NCBI GenBank assembly: GCA_963739365.1
Contig: CAVUAG010000009.1
Span: forward strand, 28,715 to 92,714
Source: an uncultured Chloroflexia bacterium
GTDB taxonomy: Bacteria; Chloroflexota; Limnocylindria; Limnocylindrales; CSP1-4
Direction: 5' to 3'
Length of the DNA: 64,000 nucleotides
In this document: positions 6,033-26,556 of the stretch, one piece after another
Layout: each line of letters begins with the position of its first letter
How positions within the stretch are numbered: position 1 is the first letter of the stretch
The notes under the pieces: generated by a model
Databases searched by the model: none
What the model was told of the DNA's origin: nothing
Seen by the model: the letters and a program-made list of their open reading frames with translations, nothing else
Position numbers and translations under genes: made by a program

Positions 6033-6088
6033 GGGTTCGCTCCGATCGGGTCGGGTTGTCGCCGGGCAACGGCGAGCAGCAACATTCG

Positions 6089-6137
6089 TTTATATAAAGC
6101 GTCGTTGATGGTAGCCGCGAGCTTCGCCGAGTGTCAA
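6089..6137 (-). promoter_or_regulatory. Sigma70-type promoter with a putative ArsR operator for the PI/PIM operon
   Basis: Minus strand TTGACA (6137-6132), 18 bp spacer, TACCAT (6113-6108), then ATCAA-N6-TTTAT and the palindrome TTTATATAAA in a local AT-rich patch. Confidence 0.7.
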
Positions 6138-6462: not shown

Positions 6463-6493
6463 GTGGCGAGGGTCGCGCAGGTCGCCTCGCCCG

Positions 6494-7012
6494 TCAAGCC
6501 GGCTCGATGGACGGACGCCGCGCCAGCTCGTGGTTCGTGTAGGCCGACTCCGTGCTCACCTCGCGGACGATCAGGGCAGCGATCCCGGGCGGCGGCTCGG
6601 GCACGTCCGCCGCGTCGTCGAGCTCCACCTCGAGCAGGACGAGCCCCGGCGGCTCGTCGAAGACGTCCAGCTCGTAGGTCCAGCCACCGCTCACGAACAC
6701 GTGACGCGTCTTGCGGATCACCCGGCGCGCGGGGTCGGCATCGGCCAGCAGGCGCGCGTACTCGTCGGCCGTGAGGTCGTCCTCGAGCTCCTGGCGCACG
6801 ATGCCGGCGACGTCGCGCTTGCGCGTGAACACGTGGCGGACGATCCCCCCGCGATCGGTCCGTCGGACGCGACGCACCCACTCGCCGTCCGCGCGCAGGT
6901 AGGCCTGCTCGATCCGGACGTCGAGCGCACCCAGCGCCGCAAGGTCGGATGCGGCGGGGGCACTCGACAGCAGGTACTTCCGCTCGATCTCGAGCCCGGT
7001 CTCTCGGCCCAT
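6494..7012 (-). CDS. CYTH/triphosphate tunnel metalloenzyme domain protein
   Basis: EIERKYLL N-terminus, IEQAYL, IRKTRH, ELDVF, LLEVEL, YTNHELA. Confidence 0.9.
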   Translation of the reverse strand: MGRETGLEIERKYLLSSAPAASDLAALGALDVRIEQAYLRADGEWVRRVRRTDRGGIVRHVFTRKRDVAGIVRQELEDDLTADEYARLLADADPARRVIRKTRHVFVSGGWTYELDVFDEPPGLVLLEVELDDAADVPEPPPGIAALIVREVSTESAYTNHELARRPSIEPA

Positions 7013-7176
7013 GGAGCTCCCTTCGCGGGGAGTATGCGCCGGCCGGCGGGTGGGGTGAGCCGGCTGCGCGCCCTGGGCCCGCCGGGCGGGCGAGGCGAGC
7101 CGGTCACCGGTCGGCGCTCGATCCCCCGCCCTGCCCCGCGCGAGGCGGGAACGGGCGGCGGCTCTACACTCCGCGC

Positions 7177-8844: not shown

Positions 8845-9826
8845 CGTGCTCCGCCTCGAGGCCGAGGCATCGCTCCGGATCGAGCACTGGCGCGACGGCG
8901 AGCACCGGACGCTGACCGGGCTCGAGGCCCTGCACCACGCCGTCGGTGAGTCGAGCGCGCTCCACTGGGTCGACCTGACGGACCCATCCCCGGCCCTCGT
9001 CGAGGCAGTCGCGGACGAGCTCGGCCTCCACCCCCTCATCGCCGAGGACATCCTGGAGCGCAACCAGCGCCCCAAGCTGGAGCTGACCGACGGCTTCGCG
9101 CACCTCGTGGTCTTCGCCGTCGCCTGGGAGCGCGAGCTGCTGGTCGACGAGATCGACCTGGTCCTGGGCCGCTCGTTCCTGCTGTCGGTCCACACGGCGT
9201 TCTGGGATCCGCGCGCGGCGGAGCACCTGCGGGACGGCGTGGAGCCGGTGATCGCGCGCGGGACGGACTACCTGCTGTGGGCGCTCCTCGATCACGTGGT
9301 CGACCAGTACTACCCGGTCTTCGACCGGATCGAGGACGCGGTCGACGATCTCGAGGACCGGATCGTCAGCCGGCCGGACAACGACACGCTCGAGCAGCTC
9401 TTCGGCCTCAAGCGCCAGCTCGTCGAGCTGCGCCACGTCAGCTCGCCGCAGCGCGAGGTCTTCAACCAGCTGACGAACCGGACGCTCCCGTTCATCGACC
9501 CCGAGCACGTCATCTACTTCCGCGACATCTACGACCATGCCGTCCACCTCTCCGACGAGTACGACTCGTTCCGGGAGCTCGTCTCGGCGGCCCTCGACGT
9601 CTACCTCTCGACGATCAACAACAACCTGTCCCTCATCATGAAGCGGCTGACCGGGATCACCGTCATCCTGGCCGGGATCGGCGCCTTCGCCGGGATCTTC
9701 GGCATGAGCGAGGCGGGCGCGGCGTTCAAGCTCGGCGAGGCGCCCGGCTTCTGGATCGTCACCTTCGGGATCATCGCGCTGGCGGTGGGGCTGGCGGTGG
9801 TGCTGCGCCGGATCCGCTGGATCTGA
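8792..9826 (+). CDS. corA: CorA-family Mg2+/Co2+ transporter
   Basis: LHPLIAED...QRPK, YFRDIYDH, NN..MKRLT, two C-terminal TM helices with GIFGMS (GMN-like). Confidence 0.9.
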   Translation: MTEEPGPAGNPSPPSPSDVLRLEAEASLRIEHWRDGEHRTLTGLEALHHAVGESSALHWVDLTDPSPALVEAVADELGLHPLIAEDILERNQRPKLELTDGFAHLVVFAVAWERELLVDEIDLVLGRSFLLSVHTAFWDPRAAEHLRDGVEPVIARGTDYLLWALLDHVVDQYYPVFDRIEDAVDDLEDRIVSRPDNDTLEQLFGLKRQLVELRHVSSPQREVFNQLTNRTLPFIDPEHVIYFRDIYDHAVHLSDEYDSFRELVSAALDVYLSTINNNLSLIMKRLTGITVILAGIGAFAGIFGMSEAGAAFKLGEAPGFWIVTFGIIALAVGLAVVLRRIRWI

Positions 9827-9895
9827 CGGGCGGCAGCCCAGGGGCCCTGCGGGCCATCGCCCACCGGGCAGTGACCGAGCAGGCCCGGATCGCGC

Positions 9896-10624
9896 CTACT
9901 CGCAGACGAGCGGCTTCGCGATCGGGTTCGCGGCCGTCGGGTCGGCCGGCCCGGCGCTCAACGGTCGAGCCACGACCATCATCACCAGGCCGGTGTAGCC
10001 GGGCACGCCCTTCCGGGGCCCTTCCGACGTCTGGAGGACCAGCTGCTCCGCTGGTTGCCGCGAACGCGAAGTCGAGGCTGTCCTGGTTGCGCATGACCCG
10101 GGTGATCTCGTAGAGGAACAGCTGGTTGTCGCTCGTGTACACCTGGACGAGCATCCCCACCATCTTCGCGTCCGCGGTCCTGAGCAGGGGCAGGAACATC
10201 CCCTCGCGGGCATGGGCGAAGAGGTAGGTCGTGCCCGGGGAGCCCGGCTGCTTGAGCTGAGGAAGGTACTCGGCGACGTTGCAGTACGGGAAATGGTCTC
10301 GGATCGCCGGGGGGCCGCACGACGGGGAGGTCGATTTGCAGGGCCGGGACCACGACCCGGCTTGCGACGCGGGTCGCCCCTCGGGTCTGGCGAGGGCACC
10401 GCGGATGCGGACGGGGCTCCGGTGGGGATCGGCGGGAGGCTCGGTCGGGGCGTCTGGGCGGCGGAGCCCGGGGGCTCGGCAGATGGGACCACCGACGGGG
10501 CGAGCGCCACGGCCTGCGGGGGATCCTGGTAGCTGAGCAGCCCGACCATCAGCAGCACGACACCGGCCGCCGTCACGAGGGCGGGCAGCAGGCGGCGGGC
10601 GATCCAGTCGAGGAGCGAGCGCAT
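9896..10624 (-). CDS. Membrane-anchored sortase-like protein (frameshifted in this assembly)
   Basis: Stitched from three frames: N-terminal TM, Pro-rich linker, ATRVVVPALQIDLPVV, PGSPGTTYLFAHAR, FLYEITRV, LVLQTSEGP, matching the sortase fold order. Confidence 0.6.
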   Translation of the reverse strand: MRSLLDWIARRLLPALVTAAGVVLLMVGLLSYQDPPQAVALAPSVVPSAEPPGSAAQTPRPSLPPIPTGAPSASAVPSPDPRGDPRRKPGRGPGPANRPPRRAAPRRSETISRTATSPSTFLSSSSRAPRARPTSSPMPARGCSCPCSGPRTRRWWGCSSRCTRATTSCSSTRSPGSCATRTASTSRSRQPAEQLVLQTSEGPRKGVPGYTGLVMMVVARPLSAGPADPTAANPIAKPLVCE

Positions 10625-10837
10625 CAGTGAAGGCATCCTAGCAAGGAGATCGGGTGAGGCCACCCGGCGGTTTGTCCGGTGCTGGGACGCAGGAGGTCCC
10701 GGACCTGTTGCGCGGCCGGAGCGCCGCCGGTGACGCGCCGCACATTCGGGGGCGGGCGTCCCCGGCCGTGCCCCGCGCGGAGCGCCGGCCTGACCGGCGC
10801 GCGCAGCGCCGCCGCGAGTCGGCTACGCTCCCCGCCG

Positions 10838-11506
10838 ATGCGCTCCTTCGTCGCGATCGCGCTCGGGCTGATCGTCGGCGCCGCGGCCGCCCTCGGGCTG
10901 GCCGTCGTCGTCTACTCGATCGTGCCGCGCACCCCCGCGCCAACGCCGGCTCCCTCGTCGACGCCCGTCGTCCGTGCTGCCCTCGTCGACGCCCGTCGCT
11001 CGCGCCGCTGCCGCCGACGCCCTCCCGCCACGCCCGGGTCGAGCGCGAGTCGCAGCCCGTCTCCCTTCCCGCTTGTCGGGAAGCCGGCCCCGCCCCTCGT
11101 CGCGCCCGGCCTGGACGGCTCCACGATCGACCTCGCCGCCTACCGTGGGCAGCCGGTCTGGATCGTCTTCACCGCCACCTACTGCCCTCCCTGTCGCGAC
11201 GAGTACCCACTCATGAACGGCTACGCCGTCCGCTACGCCGAGACGGGCCTGGTCGTCCTCGCCATCCACGTGAAGGAGGACGCGGCGACCGTCAAGCCGT
11301 TCGTGGACGAGCTGAACGTGACCTTCCCGGTCGCGCTGGACGAGGACGGGAGTCGCGCGGCGGCCTGGGACGCGCTCGCCCTGCCGGTCCACTACTGGAT
11401 CGACGAGGCGGGCATCGTGCAGGAAGCGGCGCTCGGCGGGCTCGGACCGGACCAGATGGCTGCGGGCCTGTCGACGATCCTGCCCGGCGTCACGATCGGC
11501 GAGTAG
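10838..11506 (+). CDS. TlpA/ResA-like membrane-anchored thiol-disulfide oxidoreductase
   Basis: N-terminal TM, GKPAP..LDG..IDL..YRGQPV, FTATYCPPCRDE (CxxC), LPVHYWID. Confidence 0.9.
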   Translation: MRSFVAIALGLIVGAAAALGLAVVVYSIVPRTPAPTPAPSSTPVVRAALVDARRSRRCRRRPPATPGSSASRSPSPFPLVGKPAPPLVAPGLDGSTIDLAAYRGQPVWIVFTATYCPPCRDEYPLMNGYAVRYAETGLVVLAIHVKEDAATVKPFVDELNVTFPVALDEDGSRAAAWDALALPVHYWIDEAGIVQEAALGGLGPDQMAAGLSTILPGVTIGE

Positions 11507-11520
11507 GCGCCCGCGCCCGG

Positions 11521-12995
11521 CTACGGCAGCGCCGCACCCACCGCCGCGGCGGCCGAGCCGACGGCCTCGAGGAGCGGGCCCGGGAAGAGGCCCAGGAGGA
11601 TCGTGCCCACGCCGGTGATCGTCAGCCCCACGCGAAGCAGCATCCCGTGGGCGACGGGCGTCGCGTCGCCCTGCGGCTCGCGCATGTACATGTAGACGAT
11701 GACGCGCAGGTAGTAGAAGGCGGCCGCCGCGGCGTTGAGGACCGCGATCACCGCGAGCAGGGTCAGCCAGCCGCCGCCCTGGACCGCCGCCAGGATCACG
11801 TACGCCTTGCCGAAGAAGCCGGCCGTCGGCGGGATCCCCGTCAGGGAGAGCAGGAAGAGGACCATCAGGACCCCGAGGATCGGCTCGCGGCGGCCCAGGC
11901 CGGCGAACGTCTCGAGCCGGCTCGTCACGCCGGGCCGCTTCTGAAGTGCCGAGATGACGGCAAAGGCACCGAGGTTCATGAACGTGTAGGCGGCGGCGTA
12001 GAACAGGAGCCCTTCGAGGCCCTCGATCTGGCCCGCGGCGTACGCCGTGAGGCCCACCATCATGTAGCCGGTGTGGGCGATCGAGGAGTACGCGAGCATT
12101 CGCTTCACGTTGTCCTGGGTGAGCGCGACGAGGTTGCCCAGGGTCATCGTGAAGGCCGCCAGGACGAAGAAGACGATGGCCCACTCGTCCTGCAGCGGGC
12201 CGAGCGCCTCGGCGAAGACCCGCAGGATCACCGCGAAGGCGCCGATCTTCGGCAGCACCGAGAGATAGCCCGTGATCGGCGTCGGCGAGCCCTGGTAGGC
12301 GTCGGGCGTCCAGTAGTGGAACGGGACGGCCGCGATCTTGAAGGCGACGCCGGTGGTCAGGAAGGCGAGGCCCAGGGCCAGGCCCGGCGAGAGGGCAGCC
12401 TGGCCCTCGACGATGGCCTCCAGCGCGGCTGCCACGTCGCCGACCCGGGTGGAGCCGGTGAGCCCCCAGACGAAGGCCAGCCCGAAGAGGAAGATCGCGC
12501 TCGAGAACGACCCGAGGAGGAAGTACTTGATCGCGCCCTCCGTGGAGAGCGCGTCGCGCTTGTGGTAGCCGGCCAGCATGTAGCCGGGGATCACCATCAG
12601 CTCGAGGCCCAGGAAGAGCACCAGGAGATCGGCTGACGCCGCGATGAGCATCGCTCCCGAGAGCGCGAAGACCAGGATGGCGGCGAACTCCGGCACGGGC
12701 AGCCCGCGCGCCGCGAGATACTCCGGCCCGAAGAGGATCGTGAGGGCCACGATCGCCACGAAGACGAGGTCGAGGAACGTCGTCAGGTCGTCCACGCGGT
12801 AGGAGCCGCCGAAGGCGCTTCCGGGCGTCGCCCCGGCCCAGACGACGAGGGCTGCGACGACCGCCAGGCCCACCAGGCTCACCCCGATGGCGGCCCGGCA
12901 TTCGCCGGGGGCGACGATGTCGGCCACGATGATGGCGCGGCGAGCAGGACGACCGCGACGAGCGGCGCGATGACGGCGAGGTCGGCAGTGGACAT
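11521..12995 (-). CDS. nuoN: NADH-quinone oxidoreductase subunit N (frameshift near 5' end)
   Basis: EGAIKYFLLG, FKIAAVPFHYWTPDAYQGSPTP, KRMLAYSSIAH, LSLTGIPPTAGFFGK. Confidence 0.95.
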
Positions 12996-13009
12996 CGGCG
13001 GGGCTCCCG

Positions 13010-14555
13010 TCAGTTCCCGAGCGCCGTCGCGAGCGACGGGTCGACGGCGGCGAGCACGGCCTTCACGGAGCCGGCGATGAGATCGAGCACCAGGCCGGGG
13101 AAGAGGCCGAAGATCACCGTGAGCGCGCCGAGCGGTGCCAGGGTCAGGATCTCCACCGGCCGCATGTCGGTGAGGTGGTGCCCGAGCCCCTTGAGGAAGT
13201 CCGAGAGCGGCCCGAAGAGGACCCGCTGCTGCATCCAGAGGAGGTAGGCGGCGGCGAGGATCATCACGAAGGTGATCACGACTGCCGTCCACGGGCTGAA
13301 CGCGAACGTGCCCTGGAAGACGAGGAACTCCCCGACGAAGCCGGCCAGGCCGGGCAGGCCCACCGAGGCGAAGACGAAGAAGCCGAGCGCCGCCGAGAAG
13401 ACCGGGACCGGAGCGCCGAGGCCGCCCATCTTCGCGATCGTCCGGTCGTGCGTCCGCTCGTAGATGACGCCGACGAGGATGAAGAGGGCGCCGGTGATCA
13501 GGCCGTGGTTGACCATCTGGAGGATCGCGCCCTGCATCCCCTGCTCCTGGAAGACGAAGATCCCCAGGGTCACGAAGCCCATGTGGCTGACCGAGCTGTA
13601 GGCCACCAGCTTCTTGAGGTCGGGCTGGACGAGGGCCACGATCGCGCCGTAGATGATGGCGATGACCGAGAGCACGATGATCAGGGGGGCGAAGGCCTGC
13701 GCCCCCTCGGGGAAGATCGGCAGGGCGAAGCGGATGAACCCGTAGGCGCCCAGCTTGAGGAGGACGCCGGCCAGGATCACCGATCCCGCCGTGGGTGCCT
13801 CCACGTGGGCATCGGGCAGCCAGGTGTGGAACGGGAACATCGGGACCTTGATCGCGAACGCGAGCGCGAAGGCGGCGAACGCGAACAGCTGGAAGGTGCG
13901 GTCGAAGCCGTGGCCGGCCAGGTTCTGCAGGTCGAACGCCCCGTCCCAGCTCCCGGTCGCTGCCTGGTAGGTGAACGCCGTGGCCAGGATCGCCACGAGC
14001 ATCAGGAGCGAGCCCACCAGGGTGTAGAGGACGAACTTGATCGTGGCGTAGATCCGGTTGGCCCCGCCCCAGATCCCGATGATCAGGTACATCGGGACGA
14101 GCACGACCTCCCAGAAGATGTAGAAGAGGAAGAGGTCGAGCGACACGAAGACGCCCAGCATCCCGACCTCGAGGATCAGGAAGGCGATCATGTACTCCTT
14201 CACCCGCTCCTTGATCGGGGAGAAGCTGGCCAGGATGGAGATCCAGGTGAGGGTCGTGGTGAGGACGACCATCGCCACCGAGAGCCCGTCCACGCCGAGC
14301 TTGTACTGGATCCCGAAGATGGGGATCCAGTCGAGCTGCTCCACGTACTGGAAGGCCAGCCCGGGGCCCGTCTCGCGGCCCGGCAGGTAGCCCAGGAGGA
14401 GCCACAGGCTGACGACCCACGCTGGCCAGCGAGAAGACGAGCGCCGCGCCCCGGATCGCGCCCACGTTGCGGCGCGGGATGAGCGCCACGACGAGCGCGC
14501 CGACCAGCGGCAGGAAGGTGATGACGCTCAGGATCGGGAAGTCGCCGATGTTCAT
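13010..14555 (-). CDS. nuoM: NADH-quinone oxidoreductase subunit M (frameshift near 14410)
   Basis: [48 protein letters not shown]; N-terminus [17 protein letters not shown] is in another frame. Confidence 0.95.
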
Positions 14556-14566
14556 CGTCGTCCTCC

Positions 14567-16586
14567 CTACCTGGCCGCGATCGACGAGGTACGCGCCGGC
14601 CATGACGATCAGCCCGATCGCGATGCCCAGCGCGTAGTTCTGGACACGCCCGGTCTGCACCCGGCGCAGGCCGCGACCGGCGTCGACCGTGAGGCTGCCC
14701 ACGCCGTTCACCGTGCCGTCGACGACCGTCCGATCGAACCACCAGATCGCCGCCGCGACGCGGCCGCCGATGACGATGAACAGCAGGTGGTTCAGGTCGT
14801 CGAACCACCACTTGTTGAGGCTGGCCCGGTAGAGGAAGCGGGTGGCGCCGTTGGCGTTCGTGATCGCCTGGACGCGCGCCGGGTTGCCGGCCCGGCGGAA
14901 GGCGCCGAAGAGCCAGATCCCGACGACGAGACCCACCGTGGCGATGGCGACGCTGACGAGGATGAGGACACCGTCGATGCCGAACAGCTCGTAGGCCGGC
15001 TTGTCCGGGTGGAGCATCTCCTCCGACTCGGCGAAGACCGGCTCGAGCCAGTGGATGATCCGCGAGTCCCCCAGCGGCGTGCCGAGGAAGATCCCCAGCA
15101 GCGCGGATGCGGATCGCCAGGAGGACCAGCGGCACGGTCATCGTCCAGGTCGACTCGTGGATCCGGTCCCAGATCCGGCGCACGTACTCCGACGGCTGCC
15201 CGTAGAACGTCTTGCCCATCAGGCGCCACATGTAGAAGGCGGTCATCCCGGCGACGACGAAGCCGATCGCCCAGACCCAGTAGAAGCCGAACTTGAAGCT
15301 CTCGGCGAGGATCTCGTCCTTGCTGAAGAAGCCGGCCAGCGGCGGGATCCCGGCGATCGCCAGGGTGCCGATGAGCATCGTCCAGTGGGTGACCGGGATC
15401 CTCCGGTGCAGGCCGCCCATGTTGTTCATGTCCTGCTCCTCGTGGACGGCGTGGATGACGCTGCCCGAGCCGAGGAAGAGGAGGCCCTTGAAGAAGCCGT
15501 GGGCCATCAGGTGGAAGATCGCGGCCACGAAGGCGCCCACGCCGAGCGCGGCGAACATGAGGCCCAGCTGGGAGAGGGTCGAGTAGGCCAGGACGCGCTT
15601 GATGTCGGTCTGGGTGAAGGCGATCGAGGCGGCCAGGATGGCGGTGAAGATGCCGATCGCCGCCACGATCGACCATCACACCCGGGGCCAGGGCGAAGAT
15701 CGGGTTGGCGCGGGCGACGAGGTAGACGCCGGCGTTGACCATCGTGGCGGCATGGATGAGGGCGGAGACCGGGGTCGGGCCCTCCATCGCGTCGGGCAGC
15801 CAGACGTGGAGCGGGAACTGGGCGCTCTTGCCCACCGCGCCGCAGAAGACGAGGAACGCGATCGCGGCGATCGTCGCCTCGTCGAGCTCGGCGATCAGCT
15901 CGAACGACTCGCGGATGTCGAGCGTCCCCGTGCTGACCCAGATCAGCATGATGCCCAGGGCGAACCCGACGTCGCCGACGCGGTTGACGATGAACGCCTT
16001 CTTGGCGGCGAGGGCGGCCGAGCGCTTCGGGTACCAGAACCCGATGAGGAGGTACGAGCACAGGCCCACCAGCTCCCAGGCCGCGAAGACGGTGAGCCAG
16101 CTGTCGCCCAGGACGAGCAGGAGCATGCTGAACATGAAGAGGTTGAGGTAGGCGAAGAAGCGCCAGCGGCCCGGGTCGTGGGCCATGTAGCCCACCGAGT
16201 AGAGGTGGACGAGCATGCCGATCGTCGTCACGACGATGAGGAGGCAGGCCGTCAGCTGGTCCACGTAGAGGCCCATCTCCACCTGGAAGGCCCCCGCCGG
16301 GATCCAGGTCCAGAGCGTGATCCCCGCCCCGTGCTCGCCGAAGCCGCCGGTGAGCGCCTCGTAGACGACCACCATCGCGATCGCCCAGGTGGCCACGATG
16401 AGGAGGAGCGGGACCAGGAAGGCGAAGCGCCCGATCCGCCGCCCGAAGAGCGCCGTGAAGACGAAGCCGGCAAGGGGCAGGACGAGCAGCAACGGCACGA
16501 GGTTGATCACCTCGCTCGACTGCCTCGGCTTCCTCGGAGGCGGCGGCCAGGAGCGGGGCGGCGTTCGGGAGAAGGGATTCGAACAC
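14567..16586 (-). CDS. nuoL: NADH-quinone oxidoreductase subunit L (several frameshifts)
   Basis: [70 protein letters not shown] spread across several frames. Confidence 0.93.
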
Positions 16587-16611
16587 GCGGGTCTCTCGGG
16601 CTCCTCGCGGG

Positions 16612-16923
16612 CTACTGGCGCATGGCGTCGTACTCGTCGACGAGCGGCGTCCGCCGGTTGCGGTAGATCGCCATGACGATGGCGAGGCCGACGGTCGCCT
16701 CGGCCGCGGCCACCGCCATCACCATGAGGGCGATCACCGAGGCGTCGACGTTGAGCTCCGGCACGAAGGCGCCGAAGGCGACGATGACGAGGTTGACGGC
16801 GTTGAGCATCAGCTCGATCGACATGAGCATGCTGATCGCGTTGCGCCGGGCCAGGAAGCCGAAGCTCCCCACGGCGAAGAGGATGCCGGCGAGGATGAGA
16901 TAGGCGTCGAGCGACTGGCTCAT
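16612..16923 (-). CDS. nuoK: NADH-quinone oxidoreductase subunit K
   Basis: [19 protein letters not shown] and [13 protein letters not shown]; ATGA overlap with nuoJ. Confidence 0.95.
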
Positions 16924-17453
16924 GCGTCCCGGTCCTCCCGCTTCGCGAGGAAGACGCCGCCGATGACGGCCGCCAGCAGGAGCACGCTCACGACCTCGAA
17001 CGGCAGGATGTACTCGTTGAAGAGGAGGCGCGCCAGGGCGTCGGTGGCGGTCGCGAGCCGCGTGCTCACGTCGCCCCAGTCGGTGGACACGACCGACAGG
17101 GCCACGATGACCGCGATCACGACCGCTGCGACTGCCGCGGGGATCGCCTGGGTCTGGAAGACGAGGCGCGCGGGCGCGTTCTTGGCCTGGGTCAGCATGA
17201 CCGCGAAGAGGATGAGGACCGCGATCGCCCCGATGTAGACGAGGACCTGGGCCGCGGCCACGAGCGGCGCACCGAGCATGACGTAGATGCCGGCCAGGGC
17301 GCCGAACGCGACGACCATCGCGATCCCGCAACGGATGATGTCGCGCAGGGTGACGACCAGCAGGGCACTGCCGAGCAGGATGCCCGCGAGGACGACGAAG
17401 AGGACGTCGTTCCAGCTGATCCCCAGGAACGGCACCGTGTCCGGGATTGCCAC
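16920..17453 (-). CDS. nuoJ: NADH-quinone oxidoreductase subunit J
   Basis: [19 protein letters not shown] and [18 protein letters not shown]. Confidence 0.95.
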
Positions 17454-17465
17454 CTCTCGCCTCGC

Positions 17466-20100
17466 TCAGTCGGTGCCGTGGGATGACGGCGCGTGCGCGG
17501 TGTCGTGCGCCCCGCCGCCATGGCCATGGCCGTTGTGCCGGGAGCCGTTGCCGTTCCCGCCGCCCGCGATCGATGCCGGGAGGACGGGCAGCATCCTCGG
17601 CCCGATGTCACGCCCCGCGGCGAGCGCCCGCTCGGCCCAGTCGGGCTCGCGCCGGATGTAGGTCATCTCCGTCTCGCGGTCCACGGCGGCGATCGCGATG
17701 AGGTCGATCATCGGCTCTTCGCGGCTCGTGTGGGCCAGCTCGAAGTCCGGGCCGCAGCGGAGCGCGTCGTACGGGCAGACGTCCACGCAGATGCCGCACA
17801 GGATGCAGCGACTCTCGTCCACCTCGTACTTCTCGAGGATCCGCGGCTTGGGCATGAGGGCGCCCGTCGGGCATGTCTCGGCGCACCGGCCGCACGAGAC
17901 GCAGGGCGTGTCGTTGAGGCTCATGTCGAGCGGCGTCGTGACCAGCGTGTCGAAGCCGATCCGCATGAAGTCGTAGCACGCCGCTCCCACCACCTCCGCG
18001 CACACGTTGGCGCAGCGGCCACAGTCGATGCAGCGCGAAGGCTCGCGCAGGATGAAGGCGTGGCTGTCGTCGCGGAGGTAGTCGTGGTTGGTGCCGGTGA
18101 AGCGGTTCTCGGTGACGCTGCGATAGCCGGCCCCGCGGTTGTACTGCGGTTCCAGCGTGCGCAGGGTCGTCCCGTACTCGATGCCCAGGCGACGCAGGTC
18201 GCAGAACCCGATCGCCTCGCACGTGCACTGGAGGCAGCGCGTGCTCTCCGCGACCGCCGCCTCGCGGCTGTACGGGATCTCGTACTCGATGTACGAGTCG
18301 CGCCGTGCCTCGCCGGGCATGCTGGAGAGGCGGTGCCGGGATTCCTTGACCTCGGAGGTGAAGGGGACGATGGAGAGGAACTCCGGCTGCGGCTCGGCCA
18401 GCGTCTGGCGGGTCCGGATCGCGGCCAGGTCCAGGCCCTGCAGGAAGGCGTCCACGGCGTACGCGGCGCGCCGGCCGTCGGCGATCGCCTGGACGACCGT
18501 GGCGGCACCGGTGCGGACGTCGCCCGTCCCGAAGATGCCGGGCCGGCCCGTCTCGAAGGTGACCGGATCCACCTTGAGGCGCCACTGCTTCGTCTTCTCC
18601 AGCCCCGCGTTGCCGCCCCCGAGCCAGGTCAGGTCCGGCCCCTGGCCGATGGCGAGGAGGACGCGGTCGCACTCGATGACGAACTCGGTCCCGGCCGCCG
18701 GTTCGGGGCGCCGGCGGCCCGAGGCGTCGGGCGCGCCGAGCTGCATCCGGATGAACTCCACGCCGGAGACCTTGCCGGTCGCCTCGTCCACCAGGACGCG
18801 GGTCGGGCCGGCCTGGAAGATCATGGTGACGCCTTCCTCGATCGCCTCGTGGACCTCGCTGGACGCCGGCATGTCCTTCATGTCGCGGCGGTAGACGAGC
18901 GTCACCTCGTCGGCATGCTGGCGAACCGACGTGCGGACGCAGTCCATCGCGGTGAAGCCGCCACCGATGACCACGACGCGGGTCCCGGCGTGGCCCGGGT
19001 AGGTCAGGCCGAGCGTGGCGATCTTGAGGTAGGCGAGGCCGTCGATGACGCCGTCCGCATCCTCGTTCGGGATGCCCAGCGTGTTCGTGTCGTAGCAGCC
19101 GATGGCGACCACGACCGCGTCGAACCCCTGGTTCTGCAGGTCGTCGAGGCTGAAGTCCCGCCCCAGGGCCTGGCCGCACACGAAACGCCCGCCCAGGCGG
19201 GTGACGCTCTCGTACTCGGGCTCGAGGACGCGCTCCTTCGGCAGGCGGTACTCGGGGATGCCGTAGCGGAGCATGCCGCCGGGGGCCTCGTCCCGCTCGA
19301 AGATCGTGACGTCGTGACCCGCGATCAGGAGGTAGTAGGCAGCCGACGCGCCGGCGGGCCCGGAGCCGATCACGGCCACGCGCTTGCCCGTCTTCGGCTG
19401 CAGCTCGAAGGGGAGGGGCGGGTCGATGCCCTGCTCGCGCATCTCCTGCAGCACCTGGTCGCCGGCGTAGCGGTGGCTGTCGCGGATCGCGATCGCCTCG
19501 TCCACCTCGTCGCGGCGGCAGTGCTCCTCGCAGGGCGCCGGGCAGACGCGGCCCAGGATCGAGGGGAAGGGGATCGTCCGCTTGAAGATCCGGGCAGACT
19601 CGCGGAACTCGCCCTCCGCGTTCGCCTTCAGGAAGCCCGGGATGTCGATGTGGCTCGGGCACTTGTTCTGGCAGGGCGGAAGGCAGTACGCGTTGTGGTC
19701 GGAGAAGATCAGCTCCAGGTTCGTCCGCCGGATCCGCCGGATCTCCTCGGTCTGGGTCCGGACCACCATCCCGGCCTCGGCCTCGCGCGAGCAGGAGATC
19801 GGCGGGTGCTCCTCGCCCTCCACCTCGACGACGCACATCCGGCAGGCCCCGAAGCCGGGCAGCTTGGGCTCGTAGCAGAGGGTCGGGATCTCGATCCCGT
19901 TGTCGCGGCAGACCTCCAGGATCGTCTGGCCCTCGCGGCCCTCGACGAGCGCGTCCGTCGACCTCCAGCCGGATCGCGGGCGTCGACTGCGGCCGCTGCG
20001 GCGCCTGGGTCCGGAAGAGGCGCTCGGCGAGGCTTTCGACGGCCGGCTCGGGGCTGGTCGAGGGGACGATGTCGGCAGGGCGCGAGATCAGGTCGGCCAT
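17466..20100 (-). CDS. Multidomain Fe-S flavoprotein: NuoG/HydA-type [2Fe-2S] domain + GltD/NfnB-type FAD/NAD(P)H domain + 2x[4Fe-4S] + C-terminal half of NuoI (one frameshift near 19950)
   Basis: [17 protein letters not shown]; [11 protein letters not shown]; [12 protein letters not shown]; [10 protein letters not shown]; [14 protein letters not shown]; GTGD..GAATVV; RCLQCTC..C; CIDCGRC..C; CVSCGRC..CPTGAL; then [28 protein letters not shown]. Confidence 0.9.
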
Positions 20101-20114
20101 CGTGTGGTCGTCGC

Positions 20115-21471
20115 CTACCTTCCGGTGGCGGCGGCTGGCAGCGCGATCGGGCTGCAGACGCCGGCGGGGCAGACACCCCGGAGGATGTGGTCGTCGATCT
20201 CGGGACCGAAGTATCGCATCGCGGTCCGGAGTGGAGCGGACGCCAGCCGCTCGTGGTCGCACAGGGCGCTCGCCGCGCAGTCGTCGGCGAGGTCGGCGAG
20301 CAGCTTCGGATCGCCCGGACGGGCCGTGCCGTCGACGTAGCGCTGGCCGATCTCGGCGAGGCGGCGCAGGCCGATCCGGCAGGGGATCGTCTTGCCGCAG
20401 GCCTCGTCGGCGGCGTAGCGGACGAGCAGCCGGGCCAGGTCCACGACGCAGGCACGCTCGTCGGCGACCACGACGCCGCCCGACCCGACGTGGGCGCCGG
20501 TCGCCCGGAGCGCGTCGAACGAGTAGGGCGTGTCGAGCAGCTCTTCCGGCAGGAGGCCGCCGGTGGGGCCGCCCACCAGGACCGCCTTGAACGTGTGCCC
20601 GGCGGCCACGCCACCGGCCAGGTCCACGAGCTCGTGAAGCGTGGTCCCGGTCGGGACCTCGACGATCCCGGGGTTCGCGACCGCGCCCTGACACCCCCAC
20701 GAGGACGGTGCCCGGGGCGTCGGGGTCGCCGATGGCGCGGAACGCGTCGGCGCCGTTGGTGACGATCCAGGGCAGCGACGCGAGGGTGGCCACGTTGTGG
20801 ACGAGGGTGGGGTGGCCCCACAGGCCGCGCTCCGTGGGATACGGCGGGCGCTGCTCGGGCTGGCCTCGGCGCCCCTCGAGGGCGGCGATGAGGACCGTCT
20901 CCTCGCCCAGCATGTAGGCGCCCTGGACGGCACGGACCGTGACGGCCACGTCGCGGCCGGAGCGCAGGACGTCCGTGCCCAGGAACCCGGCCTCCTCGGC
21001 GGCGAAGACGGCTGCCTCCAGGGCCGCCACCGCGTCCGCGTACTCGGCCCGGACCGCGATGATCGCTTCGCGGGCGCCGACTGCGAGGGCCGCGATCGCG
21101 ATCCCCTCCACGACGGCAAAGGGGCGCGCCTCCATGAGGACCCGGTTCGTGGCCTGGGCCGGGTCGGCCTCGTACCCGTTGCCCACGACGTACCGGACCG
21201 GATCGGCGGCACCGGCGACGGCCCGCCACTTGGCCCCGGCCGGGTAGCCGGCCCCGCCCCGGCCGCGGAGGCCAGACGCGACGATCGTCATCAGGGTGCC
21301 GGTGGGCCCCAGGTCGCCGACCACGGAGCGCAGCGCGGCGAATGCGCCGCCCGCAATCGCGGCCGCGAGGTCCGGCGCGCGGCCGGGCGCGCCGTCGGGC
21401 GCGATCGTCGCCACGGCGTCGCCCAGGATCGGGCGGGGCTGGCCGGCGGGACTCGCGAGGATCGTCGTCAT
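20115..21471 (-). CDS. nuoF: NuoF/HydB-like flavoprotein, degenerate (frameshift near 20690)
   Basis: SGLRGRGGAGYP, GAYMLGEET, RPPYP, GGPTGG, GSGGVVV, CGKTIPCRIG, ALCDHE, HILRGVCPAGVC. Confidence 0.85.
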
Positions 21472-21475
21472 CGGC

Positions 21476-22309
21476 TCAGTGGACCGTGCGGGTGGCCGGA
21501 TGCTCCCCGGCGAGCGCCTGCGCCCAGGCGGTGGCATTGGCGGCCGTCACTTCCGGCTGGACCTCGCCGTCGAGGACCACGAGCGGGGCGGCGGCGCCGG
21601 ACGGGTGCGTCGGCAGCCAGGCGTAGCGGATCCGGCCGTCGGGCGTGGGCCGGCCAAGCTCCGTCCGGAGCCCGGCGCCGATCGCGTCCGCAAGCCGGCC
21701 GCCGCCGGCCATGAGGCAGGCCGGGCAGCGGCAGACGGCGACCTCCTTCACGGCCCGCTCGAGCCGGAGGTGGCGGTAGTAGCTGGCGGTGCCGTAGATC
21801 ATCGCGTACCAGGCGCCCGTCCGGTGGCTGATCCTCTTGAGCGCCGCGACCGGCAGGTGCCCGCACTCGGCCTGGACCGCCTCGAGGATCGAGAGCATCC
21901 GGTGAGGGTCGTGGTCGTGCGCCTCGAGGATCGCGTCGATCGCCGCCAGGTCCACGGGTTCGAAGTGCTCGTACAGCTCGTCCGGAACCTCGCGCCCGGC
22001 GCGCCGGAGCGCCGATTCGGTGCGCCGCTCGCCGTACGTCTCGGCTGCGCCCCAGTGGACCGCGTAGCGGCCCTTCGTGTCCCGGCCGCCCATGTCGATG
22101 CACTCGATCGGGCAGGCCTGGGCGCACTGGAAGCAGGTCTCGCACTTGAGCGTGCCGTGCTCGTCGTACAGGAGCTGGAGCCGCCCGCGGTACTTCACCG
22201 CGATGTCCGGATCCACCTCGGGGTACTTGATCGTGACTGGGGGCTGGAAGAAGCGGCGCATGGTGAGGGCCATCCCCTTCACCAGCCCGAGACCCGGGAT
22301 GTTGCTCAT
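21476..22309 (-). CDS. Fusion of the N-terminal half of NuoI to a degenerate NuoE-like thioredoxin-fold domain
   Basis: GLVKGMALTMRRFFQPPVTIKYPE..YRGRLQL..KCETCFQCAQACPIECI (NuoI N-half), then LSILEAVQAECGHLP..IYGTASYY..VCRCPAC..TPDG..AP.V.LDG (NuoE). Confidence 0.9.
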   Translation of the reverse strand: MSNIPGLGLVKGMALTMRRFFQPPVTIKYPEVDPDIAVKYRGRLQLLYDEHGTLKCETCFQCAQACPIECIDMGGRDTKGRYAVHWGAAETYGERRTESALRRAGREVPDELYEHFEPVDLAAIDAILEAHDHDPHRMLSILEAVQAECGHLPVAALKRISHRTGAWYAMIYGTASYYRHLRLERAVKEVAVCRCPACLMAGGGRLADAIGAGLRTELGRPTPDGRIRYAWLPTHPSGAAAPLVVLDGEVQPEVTAANATAWAQALAGEHPATRTVH

Positions 22310-22319
22310 CGCCGCCCCC

Positions 22320-23664
22320 TCAACCGCTGGCCAGCATCGAGACCGCCATGGCGGTCGCGAAGATGTTGAGAAGGGCGGCCGGCAGGAGCCACTTCCAGGC
22401 GAAGCCCATGAGCTGGTCCACGCGGACCCGCGGGAACGTCGCCCGCATCTGGACGAAGACGATCACGAAGAGGTAGCTCTTGGCCATCATCCAGAAGAGC
22501 CCGGCGACCCAGTCGAGGCTGATGAACGCCCAGCCCAGGAGGGCGCCGACCGCCAGGACGTTGAAGAGGATGAAGCCGATGAGCGAGCGCCTGGAGGGTC
22601 GAGACGCGCGAGGAGCCCAGCCAGAAGGGCAGGGCCAGGAGGAGGGTTCCCAGCAACGGGACCAGGGCCACGTAGAAGAGGAGGCCCAGCCCCAGGCTCC
22701 CCGGGTCGAGGTTCAGCTCGATCGCGAACGGCCAGTCGAACGGGGCGTTCCAGCCGCCGAAGAAGAGGACGGCGATCATCGCCGACATCACGAACACGTT
22801 GACGTACTCGGCGAAGAAGAAGAAGCCGAAGCGCATCCCGGAATACTCGGTGGCGAAGCCGGCCACGATCTCCTGGTCGGCCTCGGTCATGTCGAGCGGG
22901 GTCCGGTTCGTCTCGGCGATGCCGGCGATGAAGAAGATGAGCAGGCCCAGCGGCTGCTTGAAGACGTTCCAGTCCAGGAGCGAGCCGGCCTGCTGCTCCA
23001 CGATGGAGCTCAGGCTCATCGTGCCGGCCAGGATGATGACGCCCACCACCGAGAGGGTGAGCGGGATCTCGTAGCTGATCGCCTGGGCCGCCGCGCGCAG
23101 CGCCCCCAGGAGGCTGTACTTGTTGAAGCTGGCCCAGCCGGCCATCATCAGGCCGACCACGTTGAGGCCGCCGATCGCGAAGAAGTAGAGCAGGGCGATG
23201 TTGAAGTCCTGCGCGACGAGGCCGGGCGCGAACGGGATCACGAGGAGGCTCATGATCGTCGCGAGGAAGACGGCGACCGGGGCGACCGTGAAGATCGGGA
23301 CGTCCACGCCGCGCGGGGTGTAGTCCTCCTTCGCGAGCACCTTCAGGCCATGGACCACGCTCATCGCCAGCCCGAAGGGCCCGACGCGGTCCGGCCCGAC
23401 CCGGAGGTTCATCCGGGCGATCACCTTGAGCTCGAGCAGGATGATCAGGAAGGCCGTCGGGATCGTCATCACGATCACGACCGTCGCGGCGATGAGGAAG
23501 CGGACGAGGTCGGTGTTCGCCGCCAGGAAGTCGACGAGCGGGGGCACGAGCAGGGCGATCGCGACCGTCGCCACCGCCCCCAGCAGGAGGAGCGTCGGCA
23601 GGGCGACCAGCACGACCCTCGAGGGCACGGAGAGGCGGTTCCAGTAGGACGTCACGGCGGTCAT
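22320..23664 (-). CDS. nuoH: NADH-quinone oxidoreductase subunit H (frameshift near 22585)
   Basis: RVGPDRVGPFG, KYSLLGALRAAAQAISYE, AETNRTPLD..EA..E..GFATEYSG, FFAEY; C-terminal FPRVRVDQLM..WK is in a shifted frame. Confidence 0.95.
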
Positions 23665-23677: not shown

Positions 23678-24892
23678 TCACTTGTCCACGCCGCCCATGA
23701 CCGGGTCGAGCGAGGCCATGATCGCCATCGTGTCCGGGATGAGATTGCCCGGCATGAGCAGGGTCATCAGCTGGAGGTGGAGGAAGCTGGGGTCGTGGAT
23801 CCGCATCCTGAAGGGCTGGTCCGTGCCGTCGCTGATCACGTAGGTGGAGTACTGCCCGCGCGGCGCCTCCACCGCGGCAAAGGCGCGCCCGGGACGCGGC
23901 CGCAGGAGCCGCGGCAGCCGCGCCGAGACGGGCCCGTCGGGCATCTGGTGGAGGCACTGGTCGATGATCCGCAGGCTCTGGCGCACCTCGTCCATCCGGA
24001 GCAGGTAGCGGGCCAGCGAATCGCCCTCGCTCCGCGTCGGGATGTCGAAGTCCAGCTCCGGGTAGACGCTGTACGGGTGAGCCCGCCGAAGGTCGAAGGG
24101 GACGCCCGACGCCCGCAGGTTCGGGCCGCTCACGCACATCCGGAGGGCCGTCTCGCGGTCGATCACGCCCATGCCCCGGGCGCGCCGGACGAAGATCTCG
24201 TTCTGGTTGAGGAGGCCCATGCCGGCTTCGATCTGCCCGCCGGCGCGGCTCATCCAGTCGCCCAGGCGGCTCATGAACTCGTGGTTCAGGTCGCCGTTCA
24301 CGCCGCCGATCCGGAAGTAGTTGAAGAGGAGCTTCTGGCCGGTCAGGGCGGCCAGCATCTCCATGATCTCGTCGCGCTCGGCAAAGCTCCACAGGATCGG
24401 GGTGATCCCGCCCAGGTCCAGGGCGAACCAGCCCATGTAGAGCATGTGGCTCGCCACCCGGTTGAGCTCGGCCGAGAGGACCCGGATGTACTCGGCGCGC
24501 CGCGGCACCTCGAGGTCCAGGAGCTTCTCGAACGAGAGCACCGCCCCCCACTCGTTGAAGAGCGAGCTGATGTACTCGAGGGGGTCCACCTGGCTGATGA
24601 CCTGGTGGTAGTCGGCGTTCTCGCAGAGCTTCTCGACGCCGCGATGGAGATAGCCCAGCACGGGGTCCAGGTCGGTGACCTGCTCGCCGTTGATCTTGAG
24701 GATCACCCGCAGCACGCCGTGGGTGGACGGATGCTGCGGCCCCATGTTGATGAGCATCTCGCCGTCCCTGAGGGCGAGGAACTCCCGCTGGCGCTCGGTC
24801 CGGGCGAGCGGGATCGGGTCGAAGATGCCGGCGTGGTCGATCGGGATCGTGAGCGCCGGGTCGTCGAGGCTGGGCCGCGTCGGCGTCGTCAT
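23678..24892 (-). CDS. nuoD: NADH-quinone oxidoreductase subunit D
   Basis: INMGPQHPSTHGVLR, GYLHRGVEK, ELNRVASH, RIGGV, EAPRG, SLDPVMGGVDK; no NiFe CxxC motifs. Confidence 0.96.
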   Translation of the reverse strand: MTTPTRPSLDDPALTIPIDHAGIFDPIPLARTERQREFLALRDGEMLINMGPQHPSTHGVLRVILKINGEQVTDLDPVLGYLHRGVEKLCENADYHQVISQVDPLEYISSLFNEWGAVLSFEKLLDLEVPRRAEYIRVLSAELNRVASHMLYMGWFALDLGGITPILWSFAERDEIMEMLAALTGQKLLFNYFRIGGVNGDLNHEFMSRLGDWMSRAGGQIEAGMGLLNQNEIFVRRARGMGVIDRETALRMCVSGPNLRASGVPFDLRRAHPYSVYPELDFDIPTRSEGDSLARYLLRMDEVRQSLRIIDQCLHQMPDGPVSARLPRLLRPRPGRAFAAVEAPRGQYSTYVISDGTDQPFRMRIHDPSFLHLQLMTLLMPGNLIPDTMAIMASLDPVMGGVDK

Positions 24893-24896: not shown

Positions 24897-25454
24897 CTAC
24901 GCCCGCGCCCCGGGCGTCGTGCGGCGCAGGGTGGTCTCGTCGGCATCCGTCGGAGCGACCGCCCGCTCCATCGGCCGGATCCCACCGCCCGGCGAGCGCG
25001 CGGCATCGTCGGCCAGGTGGAAGTCCTTGCGCAGCGGGAAGCTGACGAACTCATCCGGGAGGTAGATCCGGCGCAGGTCGCGGTTCCCCTCGAAGACGAG
25101 GCCGAACATGTCGTAGGCCTCGCGCTCCATCCATTCGGCGCCCTTCCAGAGGAAGGTCAGGGACGGGACGCGCGGCTCCTCGCGGGGGATCCCGTCCACC
25201 ACGACCCGCAGCCAGTCGGGGGTCACGTCGCTCCACAGGTGGTAGACCACCTGGAACGTGGTCCCGGTGTCGACGCCGCACAGGTCGGCGAGGTACTCGA
25301 AGCGCAGGTCCGGCTCGTCGTGCAGGGTCCGCATGACCTGGGGCAGGTCGCCCGGCCGGATCCGGATCTCGGTCTGGTCCTGGCGCTGGCGGACGGGGCC
25401 CTCCATCCAGGATCCCAGCTTCCGCTCCAGGAGCGCCTTGAGCGCACGGTCCAC
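24897..25454 (-). CDS. nuoC: NADH-quinone oxidoreductase subunit C
   Basis: FEYLADLCGVD, VPSL..LW.GAEWMEREAYDMFG, LRRIYLP, FPLRKDF. Confidence 0.95.
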   Translation of the reverse strand: MDRALKALLERKLGSWMEGPVRQRQDQTEIRIRPGDLPQVMRTLHDEPDLRFEYLADLCGVDTGTTFQVVYHLWSDVTPDWLRVVVDGIPREEPRVPSLTFLWKGAEWMEREAYDMFGLVFEGNRDLRRIYLPDEFVSFPLRKDFHLADDAARSPGGGIRPMERAVAPTDADETTLRRTTPGARA

Positions 25455-25456: not shown

Positions 25457-26209
25457 TCAGATCCCCTCCGGAACCGTGGGGCCGATGTTGCGCTCGGGCC
25501 AGTGTCCGCGGCGGTCGCGGACGAGGTGCTGGAGCTTCATCATCCCGTAGATGAGGCCCTCGGGGCGGGGCGGGCAGCCCGGGATGTAGACGTCCACGGG
25601 GAGGACCCGGTCGATCCCCTGGATCGTGCTGTAGCTCCGCTTGTAGCGGCCCCCGGAGCAGGTGCAGTCGCCCATCGCGACCACCCACTTCGGCTCCGGC
25701 ATCTCCTCCCAGAGCCGGATGAGCGGCTCGGCCATCTTCGTCGTCAGGGTGCCGGCCACGATCAGCACGTCGGCCTGGCGGGGCGAGGCCCGGAACGGGA
25801 ACATGCCCCAGCGATCGATGTCGTTGCGGCTCGTCGCGGTCGACATCATCTCGATCGCACAGCAGGCCAGCCCGGAGAGGAGCGGCCAGAGGCTGTTGAG
25901 ACGGATCAGGTCCAGGACGTAGTCGGCCTTCGTCGGCACCACGTCGAGGGCGCCCCAGCGGCCGTCGTTCCGGCGCCCCTCGCCGGTCTCGTCGTAGCGC
26001 TTGAGGGCGAGCGTCGGCGCCTCGTCGAGAGGAACGCCGCTGTAGGCTTCGGGGTCGGCCGGCGTCCAGAGCGCGTTCGGGATGACGACCGGCTCGGCGA
26101 CCGCGTCCGCCGCAGTCGTGGCCGGGATGGGAAGGCGGCTGCCGGGCGTGCCGGGCGGCGGGCCGCCGGCGGGCGGGGCGCTGTCGGCCGGCGGCGGGGT
26201 CAGCGCCAC
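25457..26209 (-). CDS. nuoB: NADH-quinone oxidoreductase subunit B
   Basis: [46 protein letters not shown] (N2 ligands intact). Confidence 0.96.
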
Positions 26210-26556
26210 GTCAGCACCCCCTTGCGCCACGCGTAGGCCAGCCCCAGGAGCAGGATGCCGACGAAGATCATCATCGAGGCCATCAGGCCCGGGATCGGGT
26301 CGCGCACGACGAGGGCCCACAGGAAGATGAAGATGACCTCGATGTCGAAGGCCACGAAGAGCAGCGCGTAGATGTAGTACGAGACGCCGAACCGCCCGTG
26401 GGTGTCGCCGTACGTCGGGATGCCGCTCTCGTACGGGAGCCCCTTGAGCGGGCTCCCCTTCGTGCGGTGGCTGATCAGCCACGAGGCGCCGATCGTCAGG
26501 AAGACGAACGTGACGCCCGCGAAGGCGAAGCCGACGACGTACCAGATGCCTTCCAT
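26200..26556 (-). CDS. nuoA: NADH-quinone oxidoreductase subunit A
   Basis: [29 protein letters not shown]. Confidence 0.96.

Follow-up and report, generated by a model that had tools for sequence, protein, structure and literature searches.

Complex I is among the best-studied enzymes, and several described systems resemble the locus that we report here from a 64,000-nucleotide stretch of DNA (the window) of an uncultured Chloroflexia bacterium of the class Limnocylindria (assembly GCA_963739365.1, contig CAVUAG010000009.1, positions 28,715 to 92,714), in which the complex I subunit NuoI is encoded as two halves on separate genes. One of these systems is Nuo-Bfu, a predicted 14-subunit complex I in which BfuABC replaces NuoEFG, described for Geobacter, Deferribacteres, Planctomycetes and Nitrospirae (Schut et al. 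2022, PMC9304861). Two others are StnABC of Sporomusa ovata (PMC7483475; PDB 8oh5) and NfnABC of Caldicellulosiruptor (PMC11829005; PDB 9bov and 9n5u), which are soluble, ferredoxin-reducing enzymes with a large subunit that runs into a molybdopterin-like domain. Rearranged subunit boundaries within complex I are also known from the nuoCD and nuoBCD fusions (PMC4758237).

The locus in the window shares with Nuo-Bfu, as the latter is presented in the main text of PMC9304861, a Bfu-family three-gene module in the middle of a nuo operon, placed as the putative electron input of a proton-pumping complex I. The subunits of Nuo-Bfu run from A to N, so NuoI would be separate there (the main text does not use the word NuoI). 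In the window, by contrast, the two halves of NuoI are fused to one subunit each, the BfuC-like and the BfuA-like one, and the latter has a GltD/NADPH domain but no molybdopterin-like domain; features linked to bifurcation are degenerate in the window's lineage, and the taxa differ. With StnABC and NfnABC the locus shares the same three subunit types, including a large subunit with the GltD insertion and two Cys-rich junction motifs, but this subunit ends in the C-terminal half of NuoI and the flavoprotein lacks the terminal cluster domains of BfuB. Canonical NuoI (Nqo9, TYKY or NDUFS8) has the same two Cys motifs with their flanks and occupies the same slot between nuoH and nuoJ, but is one polypeptide in every solved complex I among our structure hits, compared to two polypeptides here. 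Finally, nuoCD and nuoBCD join whole subunits, whereas here a single cluster-binding fold is cut and its halves reside on different partners.

We found no split NuoI and no GltD-bearing module within a nuo operon in the literature, although the supplementary tables of PMC9304861 might list such clusters, and neither was found in passages of Chloroflexota genomics papers. The split-NuoI arrangement appears to be undescribed. A first-pass annotation of the window, generated by a model from the letters alone, knew of no description of this architecture; this holds for the split NuoI, but a 14-subunit Nuo-Bfu had already been predicted in PMC9304861.

Results

NuoI is encoded as two complementary halves on the first and last genes of a three-gene module

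The window (about 72% G+C) lies on contig 9 of a 2.3 Mb genome in 23 contigs that is 69% complete. Its minus strand carries the order nuoA-B-C-D-H-X-Y-Z-J-K-L-M-N, where X, Y and Z denote the inserted module. This order, which the first-pass annotation had proposed, was confirmed by a Pfam scan (matching nuoA, B, C, D, H, J, K and L) and by tblastn with intact orthologs from a relative (placing B, C, D, H, X, Y, Z, K, L, M and N). The intervals between nuoH and X and between Z and nuoJ contain no gene. The eleven core complex I genes sit in one operon, in which subunit I is represented by its two halves alone. In G007, a same-genus genome of two contigs, the operon reads nuoB-C-D-H-X-Y-Z-(J)K-L-M-N with unbroken Y (465 aa) and Z (878 aa), and the G007 orthologs of NuoB, D, L, M and N score above the NCBIfam cut-offs.

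Residues 12-76 of X match positions 1-64 of the 121 positions in the NuoI model TIGR01971, as well as a dozen NuoI equivalog models, and X then continues into a NuoE-like domain (residues 124-261; PF01257, 62.5 bits against a cut-off of 24.8). Residues 666-711 of Z match positions 71-116 of TIGR01971, complementing the match of X without overlap. Searches against solved structures gave the same picture: X 1-110 gave 35 hits at E <= 0.001, each of them to NuoI, TYKY or NdhI, X 9-71 aligns with residues 6-68 of Thermus Nqo9, and the tail of Z aligns with Nqo9 86-125. For this tail, polyferredoxins rank first through repeated partial matches, and nearly all single-stretch hits are NuoI, TYKY, NdhI or the same subunit in related membrane complexes. 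Since the matches of X and Z are complementary, also against solved structures, the cut in NuoI sits in the loop between its two Cys motifs, as had been claimed from the letters of the window, together with the fusion of the halves to the first and last genes of an input module between nuoH and nuoJ.

About 4.3 kb of other coding sequence separates the two halves, and both fusion junctions lie inside unbroken open reading frames (ORFs), in the window and in relatives; Z is unbroken in 21 of the 23 Limnocylindria loci that were fetched. The four Cys and the Pro of the X motif are invariant in 23/23 aligned sequences, and the Cys of the corresponding motif of Z, the third in that protein, in 21/21, so that none of the eight Cys in the two orphan motifs varies.

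Some variation was seen around these genes. In three loci of family f1 (L046, L047 and L048), X is just 186-225 aa long and stops either short of the thioredoxin-like part of its NuoE-like domain or inside it. The aligned Z sequences of family f4 end some 50-130 residues earlier than those of f1 and f2, and in one f4 locus (L023, genome G125, 4321-5846) Z is separated from nuoJ by two ORFs, one with a PAS domain and one with a metallo-beta-lactamase fold.

The split form is the only NuoI found in two Limnocylindria families

A profile search of the genome that contains the window returned no nuoI above the family cut-off, its best TIGR01971 matches being the two halves on two genes (49.5 bits over positions 1-65 and 46.1 bits over positions 71-116). 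An intact NuoI above the cut-off was likewise found in 0/41 relatives, in agreement with the earlier claim that a stand-alone nuoI is missing. Across the class, 4/121 genomes carry one: three belong to family f3, and one to f4, the latter also harboring the split form. Families f1 and f2 yielded no intact NuoI above the cut-off, and the split form is the only NuoI found in them.

A 157-aa NuoI-like ORF of some same-genus genomes was considered as the missing nuoI and rejected, as it belongs to a separate cluster with NuoD-like and Mrp-like genes. In L132 (genome G005, 5798-10954), this second complex-I-like cluster holds the 157-aa gene, a NuoD-like gene that falls below all NuoD cut-offs and has weak similarity to hydrogenase large subunits, and an Mrp/HyfB-like antiporter subunit; L133 (genome G019) is similar by eye.

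The architecture extends to Thermoleophilia and Ktedonobacteria

Orthologs of X are present in 39/41 relatives, and the two genomes without one are 75% and 67% complete. Across the class, X was found in 35/35 genomes of f1, 5/5 of f2, 40/40 of f4 (including the unpublished genomes G122 and G131), 0/39 of f3 and 0/1 of f5. Searching the phylum with X at E <= 1e-20 recovered the fusion in three Limnocylindria families only; this search is no proof of absence, because at that threshold it missed divergent forms in Ktedonobacteria. A profile search of 1.84 billion representatives detected more distant fused forms, which have a NuoI-like N-terminal half and, in some cases, a four-Cys NuoE domain.

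One genome per species was scanned with these distant fused forms, and the best 80 of 277 confirmed loci were mapped for gene content. Among these 80, 18 loci of Thermoleophilia/Actinomycetota read nuoB-C-D-H-X-Y-Z-K-L-M(-N) as far as each locus extends (L057, L059 and L065 end early, and L067 and L069 have broken or unmatched genes), and 42 loci of Ktedonobacteria/Chloroflexota read nuoB-X-Y-Z, among them those of the cultured species Dictyobacter vulcani W12 and D. arantiisoli Uno17, as confirmed with NCBIfam models. The same 80 also include 16 canonical nuo loci, mostly of Elusimicrobiota, and three soluble Nfn/Stn-like loci. A quick-search tree of 30 hand-picked Z sequences, built on their BLAST-aligned parts (9 Limnocylindria, 9 Thermoleophilia of the nuo type, 1 of the Por type, 9 Ktedonobacteria and 2 soluble), places each lineage in one group with support of 100, and its deep branches are weak (77, drawn open).

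The split-NuoI complex I is thus a real, conserved and widespread variant, found in three bacterial classes of two phyla. The fusions recur in related genomes and are not a novelty of one genome, since the architecture spans Limnocylindria, Thermoleophilia and Ktedonobacteria.

The Ktedonobacteria nuoB-X-Y-Z genes lie away from other nuo genes. In both Dictyobacter loci (L112 of D. vulcani W12, 8200-16025, and L093 of D. arantiisoli) there is a second, tandem copy of Z, which in L112 is in two frames, and in Dictyobacter X nothing follows the helical part of the NuoE-like domain. The Dictyobacter nuoB-X-Y-Z set may provide one membrane arm with an alternative set of peripheral-arm subunits.

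In the remaining one of the 80 loci, from Thermoleophilia (L052, about 6800-14920), PorG and PorA are followed by counterparts of X, of Y (full Bfu type) and of Z. Its X-like gene has one CxxCxxCxxxCP motif and lacks the NuoI-like first 40 residues, and its Z-like gene has the third motif and a C-terminus resembling the TPP-binding PorB part. By its gene content, the same split connector appears to serve a 2-oxoacid oxidoreductase in this locus.

The inserted module belongs to the Nfn/Stn type

The module had been described as E/F/G-like. Its subunits instead place it in the Bfu family, in the Nfn/Stn type rather than with NuoEFG. Z is best described by the NCBIfam model PRK12814 and is laid out as a NuoG/HoxU-like N-terminus, a GltD-like domain, a two-cluster domain like those of HoxU and FeFe-hydrogenases, and the C-terminal half of NuoI. 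Among solved structures, Z is closest to the Nfn-Bfu and Stn transhydrogenases, namely to their large subunits (9bov_A, 8oh5_C and 9n5u_A), and Z 42-774 aligns with residues 3-698 of NfnA (9bov_A) at E 9e-161. The match to the NfnA and StnC chains, which are 1178 and 1172 aa long, stops at their residues 698-700; their C-terminal molybdopterin-oxidoreductase-like domain was not found in Z, which has the NuoI half and then ends. The module also lacks the large C-terminal domain of NuoG.

The HxxxCxxxCxxxCP and CxxCxC..C motifs of NsoC/StnC have been reported as a scar left where GltD was inserted into a protein like NuoG (PMC7483475). In Z, HxxxCxxxCxxxCP and CxxCxC are invariant, and Z combines the NuoG-like N-terminus with GltD as the NfnA/StnC/NsoC large subunits do. 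The FAD motif GSGPAG and an 11-residue motif are conserved in the alignment of Z (A2), the NADPH-type motif GGGFTAMD...YRR is invariant, and the two-cluster domain has two complete CxxCxxCxxxC motifs with invariant Cys.

Among solved chains, NfnB, HydB and StnB match Y best (E 3e-103 to 3e-100), ahead of every NuoF of complex I (best E 4e-84). Residues 44-455 of Y align with 113-525 of the 584-aa NfnB, where Y ends; because the alignment covers only this part, Y lacks both the N-terminal [2Fe-2S] domain and the C-terminal ferredoxin-like domain of BfuB, both of which are present in Thermoleophilia Y.

Indirect evidence for pairing of the two NuoI halves

The N-terminal half on X and the third motif on Z co-occur in 60/60 complete loci (21/21 Limnocylindria, 12/12 Thermoleophilia and 27/27 Ktedonobacteria, with loci broken by contig ends or frameshifts excluded). 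In the two soluble loci with complete genes (L071 and L072), the NuoE-like protein has no such half and Z has two motifs only. Pairing of the third motif within Z, as suggested by the Pfam model Fer4_7 joining motifs 2 and 3, was rejected; because motifs 1 and 2 already form a complete two-cluster domain of the NfnA/StnC and HydA type, the third motif has no partner inside Z, and X offers exactly one orphan motif. A complex prediction of X 1-110 and Z 658-760 with two 4Fe-4S clusters, run without controls, scored 0.29 against a mark of 0.32. From the conservation of the motifs and their joint occurrence, we infer that the halves pair and that each cluster would be ligated by both polypeptides.

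It could also be argued that X-Y-Z is a self-contained soluble transhydrogenase of the Nfn/Stn type, with the NuoI-like pieces as an internal connector, and that the membrane complex works without it, through ferredoxin or another NuoI-like protein. The trio of L052, with its third motif and PorB-like C-terminus in Z, points in this direction, since its position beside PFOR genes indicates that the split domain can serve outside complex I, as does the retention of nuoB as the only nuo gene beside X-Y-Z in Ktedonobacteria. We nevertheless regard this explanation as very unlikely: the first 45 residues of X and the GPxFE tail of Z are specific to NuoI, as are the structure hits of X, the module occupies exactly the nuoI slot (H-I-J) in the operons of both Limnocylindria and Thermoleophilia, and no other nuoI was found in f1 or f2. 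To our knowledge, every enzyme of the complex I family needs a NuoI homolog between its input and cluster N2.

Features linked to bifurcation are degenerate in Limnocylindria

In the NuoE-like domain of X, only the first Cys group (CxCxxC) of the four-Cys [2Fe-2S] site described by the NuoE model TIGR01958 is present. The second pair is absent from all 20 rows that hold this stretch in an alignment of 23 Limnocylindria X sequences (A1), and the other three rows, the short X of L046, L047 and L048, end before it. In Y, the B1/N3 motif reads CGK[T/A/S]xPC instead of CGKCxPC in 18/20 sequences (alignment A3). The two exceptions (L043 and L044) keep CGKC and read LCGHG after the fourth Cys, where the others read LC..E. 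A Glu three residues past the fourth Cys is at least 90% conserved and is missing exactly in these two sequences (A3, positions 372-421 of its first sequence). This near-invariant Glu may be a replacement ligand for the lost Cys.

In Thermoleophilia, X has all four NuoE Cys and Y keeps CGKC and both terminal cluster domains, so that the Bfu flavobicluster is present by sequence there and not in the class of the window. The module appears to be complete and of the Bfu type in Thermoleophilia, and a reduced derivative in Limnocylindria.

These residue states bear on two further explanations. One is that, as has been proposed for Nuo-Bfu, the module still bifurcates or confurcates electrons (for example from NADPH and NADH, or from ferredoxin and NAD(P)H, to quinone). 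Its kinship to the bifurcating NfnABC and StnABC and the complete Thermoleophilia versions speak for this explanation. However, the published minimal bifurcation site consists of FMN, the [4Fe-4S] cluster B1 and the [2Fe-2S] cluster C1 (PMC11829005), and because Limnocylindria lack the C1 ligands, one B1 ligand and the terminal domains of Y, including the ferredoxin-binding C-terminal domain of BfuB, we favor a non-bifurcating module in this class and judge bifurcation there highly improbable.

The other is that only the NADPH/FAD route operates, with the NuoE-like domain of X and Y as structural relics of an NADPH-specific complex I. The loss of N1a/C1 ligands in all 20 X rows that hold the stretch and of the second N3/B1 Cys in most Y sequences would fit such a scenario, and the enzyme would be NADPH-specific if the three-Cys cluster of Y no longer conducts. 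Y has nonetheless kept its FMN/NADH motifs GLRGRGGAGF and GEET and is clearly constrained, with many invariant glycines at 42-83% identity, and the co-variation of the Glu with the loss of the Cys would fit a ligand swap better than loss of the cluster. An NADPH-only enzyme is therefore, in our assessment, unlikely, albeit worth keeping in mind. From these motifs, we infer that both nucleotides are used, and that the module does not bifurcate.

Gene coordinates, frameshifts and assembly quality

Table 1. Coordinates of the nuo operon, the inserted module and their domains in the window.
Feature	Position	Strand	Basis
nuoA	26200..26556	-	Pfam Oxidored_q4, 101 bits
nuoB	25460..25954	-	Pfam Oxidored_q6; tblastn 93% identity to G007 NuoB
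nuoC	24909..25454	-	Pfam Complex1_30kDa; tblastn 90% identity
nuoD	23681..24775	-	Pfam Complex1_49kDa; tblastn 93% identity; G007 ortholog above NF004739 cut-off
nuoH	22306..23664	-	Pfam NADHdh, 302 bits; frameshifted near 22581-22583
X (277 aa), NuoI N-half and NuoE-like domain	21476..22309	-	Profile matches, alignment
NuoI N-half in X (aa 12-76)	22082..22276	-	TIGR01971 positions 1-64
X motif C56-x2-C59-x2-C62-x3-C66-P67	22109-22144	-	Alignment
NuoE-like thioredoxin-fold domain of X (aa 124-261)	21527..21940	-	Pfam PF01257, 62.5 bits
Y, NuoF/BfuB-like FMN flavoprotein	20115..21471	-	TIGR01959 in two frames; frameshift near 20689-20691
Z, four-part fusion	17466..20100	-	Profile matches, alignment; frameshift near 19949-19950
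GltD-like FAD/NAD(P)H domain of Z (aa 54-467 of the 790-aa ORF)	18438..19679	-	TIGR01318, TIGR01316, PRK12814
HydA/NuoG-like 2x[4Fe-4S] domain of Z	17868..18032	-	Pfam Fer4_Nqo3; HoxU and FeFe-hydrogenase families
NuoI C-half in Z (aa 666-711)	17706..17843	-	TIGR01971 positions 71-116
Z third motif C678-x2-C681-x2-C684-x3-C688-P689, then GPDFELA	17772-17807	-	Alignment
nuoJ	16920..17453	-	Pfam Oxidored_q3, 110.9 bits
nuoK	16615..16923	-	Pfam Oxidored_q2; tblastn 93% identity
nuoL, two frame changes	14583..16510	-	Pfam Proton_antipo_N, Proton_antipo_M; tblastn in three frames
nuoM, one frame change	13013..14543	-	tblastn 83-91% to G007 NuoM, whose protein is above TIGR01972 cut-off
nuoN	11599..12933	-	tblastn 85% to G007 NuoN, whose protein is above TIGR01770 cut-off

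The start codon of Y was set at the ATG 5 nt past the stop of X. NuoH is long (447 aa), and NuoH models match it in two stretches, both in the window and in G007; residues ~310-385 are unmatched in most Thermoleophilia orthologs. Judging from these profile matches, NuoH may carry a lineage-specific insert near the usual docking place of NuoI.

At least six frame changes were detected by tblastn across the nuo operon of the window (11599-23664), in nuoH, Y, Z, nuoL (twice) and nuoM, those of the first three at 22580-22582, near 20690 and, at the start of Z, near 19950. The first-pass annotation was correct in that the fusion junctions are uninterrupted and not products of the scattered indels, but Y and the start of Z are themselves frameshifted in the window (~20690 and ~19950). 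Contigs from four runs of different studies, three of DNA and one of RNA, were aligned to 17400-22700. These contigs have one base fewer at 19949/19950 in Z (4/4 runs, part of the depth), at 20689/20691 in Y (the three DNA runs, part or all of the depth) and at 22583 in nuoH (4/4 runs, all of the depth), which are exactly the three located shift sites. Because the window has one surplus base at each site relative to contigs of independent runs, we read the frameshifts in nuoH, Y and Z as assembly errors and not decay. The frame changes across the operon suggest that the assembly is indel-prone, and the completeness estimate of 69% may have been lowered by the same cause.

The frame changes also raise the explanation that the fusions are artefacts of a noisy metagenome-assembled genome, produced by misassembly or frameshifts, or that the operon is a pseudogene. 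We give this explanation almost no credence, since the junctions are unbroken here and in dozens of independent assemblies, including the two cultured Dictyobacter genomes, the three examined shift sites each come down to a single surplus base, and the motifs are invariant.

Contigs of a sediment metatranscriptome run (X16) cover 19906-20475, 21414-21736 and 22129-22470, spanning the Y/Z, X/Y and nuoH/X boundaries. They differ from the window by ~3-4 letters per 100, and such libraries can contain DNA; the contigs are a hint of transcription in relatives.

Discussion

Taken together, these data suggest that the respiratory complex I of Limnocylindria probably has a NuoI subunit, the carrier of clusters N6a and N6b, made of two pairing pieces, and a two-donor, non-bifurcating input module of the Nfn/Stn type. 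In this proposal, the N-terminal half would contribute the amphipathic N-terminus and the first CxxCxxCxxxCP motif, and the C-terminal half the second motif and GPxFE. The two orphan motifs would fold into one 2x[4Fe-4S] domain of the NuoI type, in which each cluster would be held by three Cys of one chain and a fourth Cys of the other, and this shared fold would staple the module onto NuoB, NuoD and NuoH. NADH at the FMN of Y and NADPH at the FAD of Z would feed the iron-sulfur chain of Z, from whose clusters electrons would pass to N6a/N6b, N2 and quinone, driving the usual proton pumping. Bifurcation-linked features would have been lost in the window's lineage, leaving a plain two-donor input module.

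Several observations weigh against this proposal. Each half scores only 46-50 bits on its own, and the single polypeptide with both CxxCxxCxxxCP motifs that TIGR01971 describes, with its cut-off of 113.05 bits, was not found in either gene. Because the genome of the window is incomplete, the absence of nuoI from it rests on the relatives. An intact nuoI is present elsewhere in 4/4 checked genomes that carry the split form outside the class (two Dictyobacter and two of the Thermoleophilia type), so the split form is a second system in these lineages and its necessity there cannot be argued from absence. Lastly, because N3/B1 has three Cys in most Limnocylindria Y, electron flow from FMN may be hampered, which makes NADH input uncertain.

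We also consider, more tentatively and with less expectation that it will hold, that the split NuoI is a portable adapter, a fold shared by the first and last subunits of the module, with each cluster held by two polypeptides, that docks it onto complex I in Limnocylindria, Thermoleophilia and Ktedonobacteria or, as in L052, onto a PFOR-like enzyme. If so, the only complex I of Limnocylindria would be a proton-pumping oxidase of both NADH and NADPH, and the fully Bfu-type version of Thermoleophilia could be a bifurcating or confurcating complex I.

Annotation pipelines name X 'NAD(P)H-dependent oxidoreductase subunit E' or 'formate dehydrogenase subunit gamma', and genome surveys would therefore score its carriers as lacking nuoI. 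Because the cluster is present in cultured Dictyobacter species, the idea can be tested at the bench. If the proposal is true, an N6a/N6b fold shared by two chains of an NADH/NADPH module from the bifurcating-enzyme family would be a new way to build the electron wire of complex I and to attach an input module to it, and in abundant freshwater and soil lineages (Limnocylindria, Ktedonobacteria and Thermoleophilia) NADPH may be a direct input to a proton-pumping complex I.

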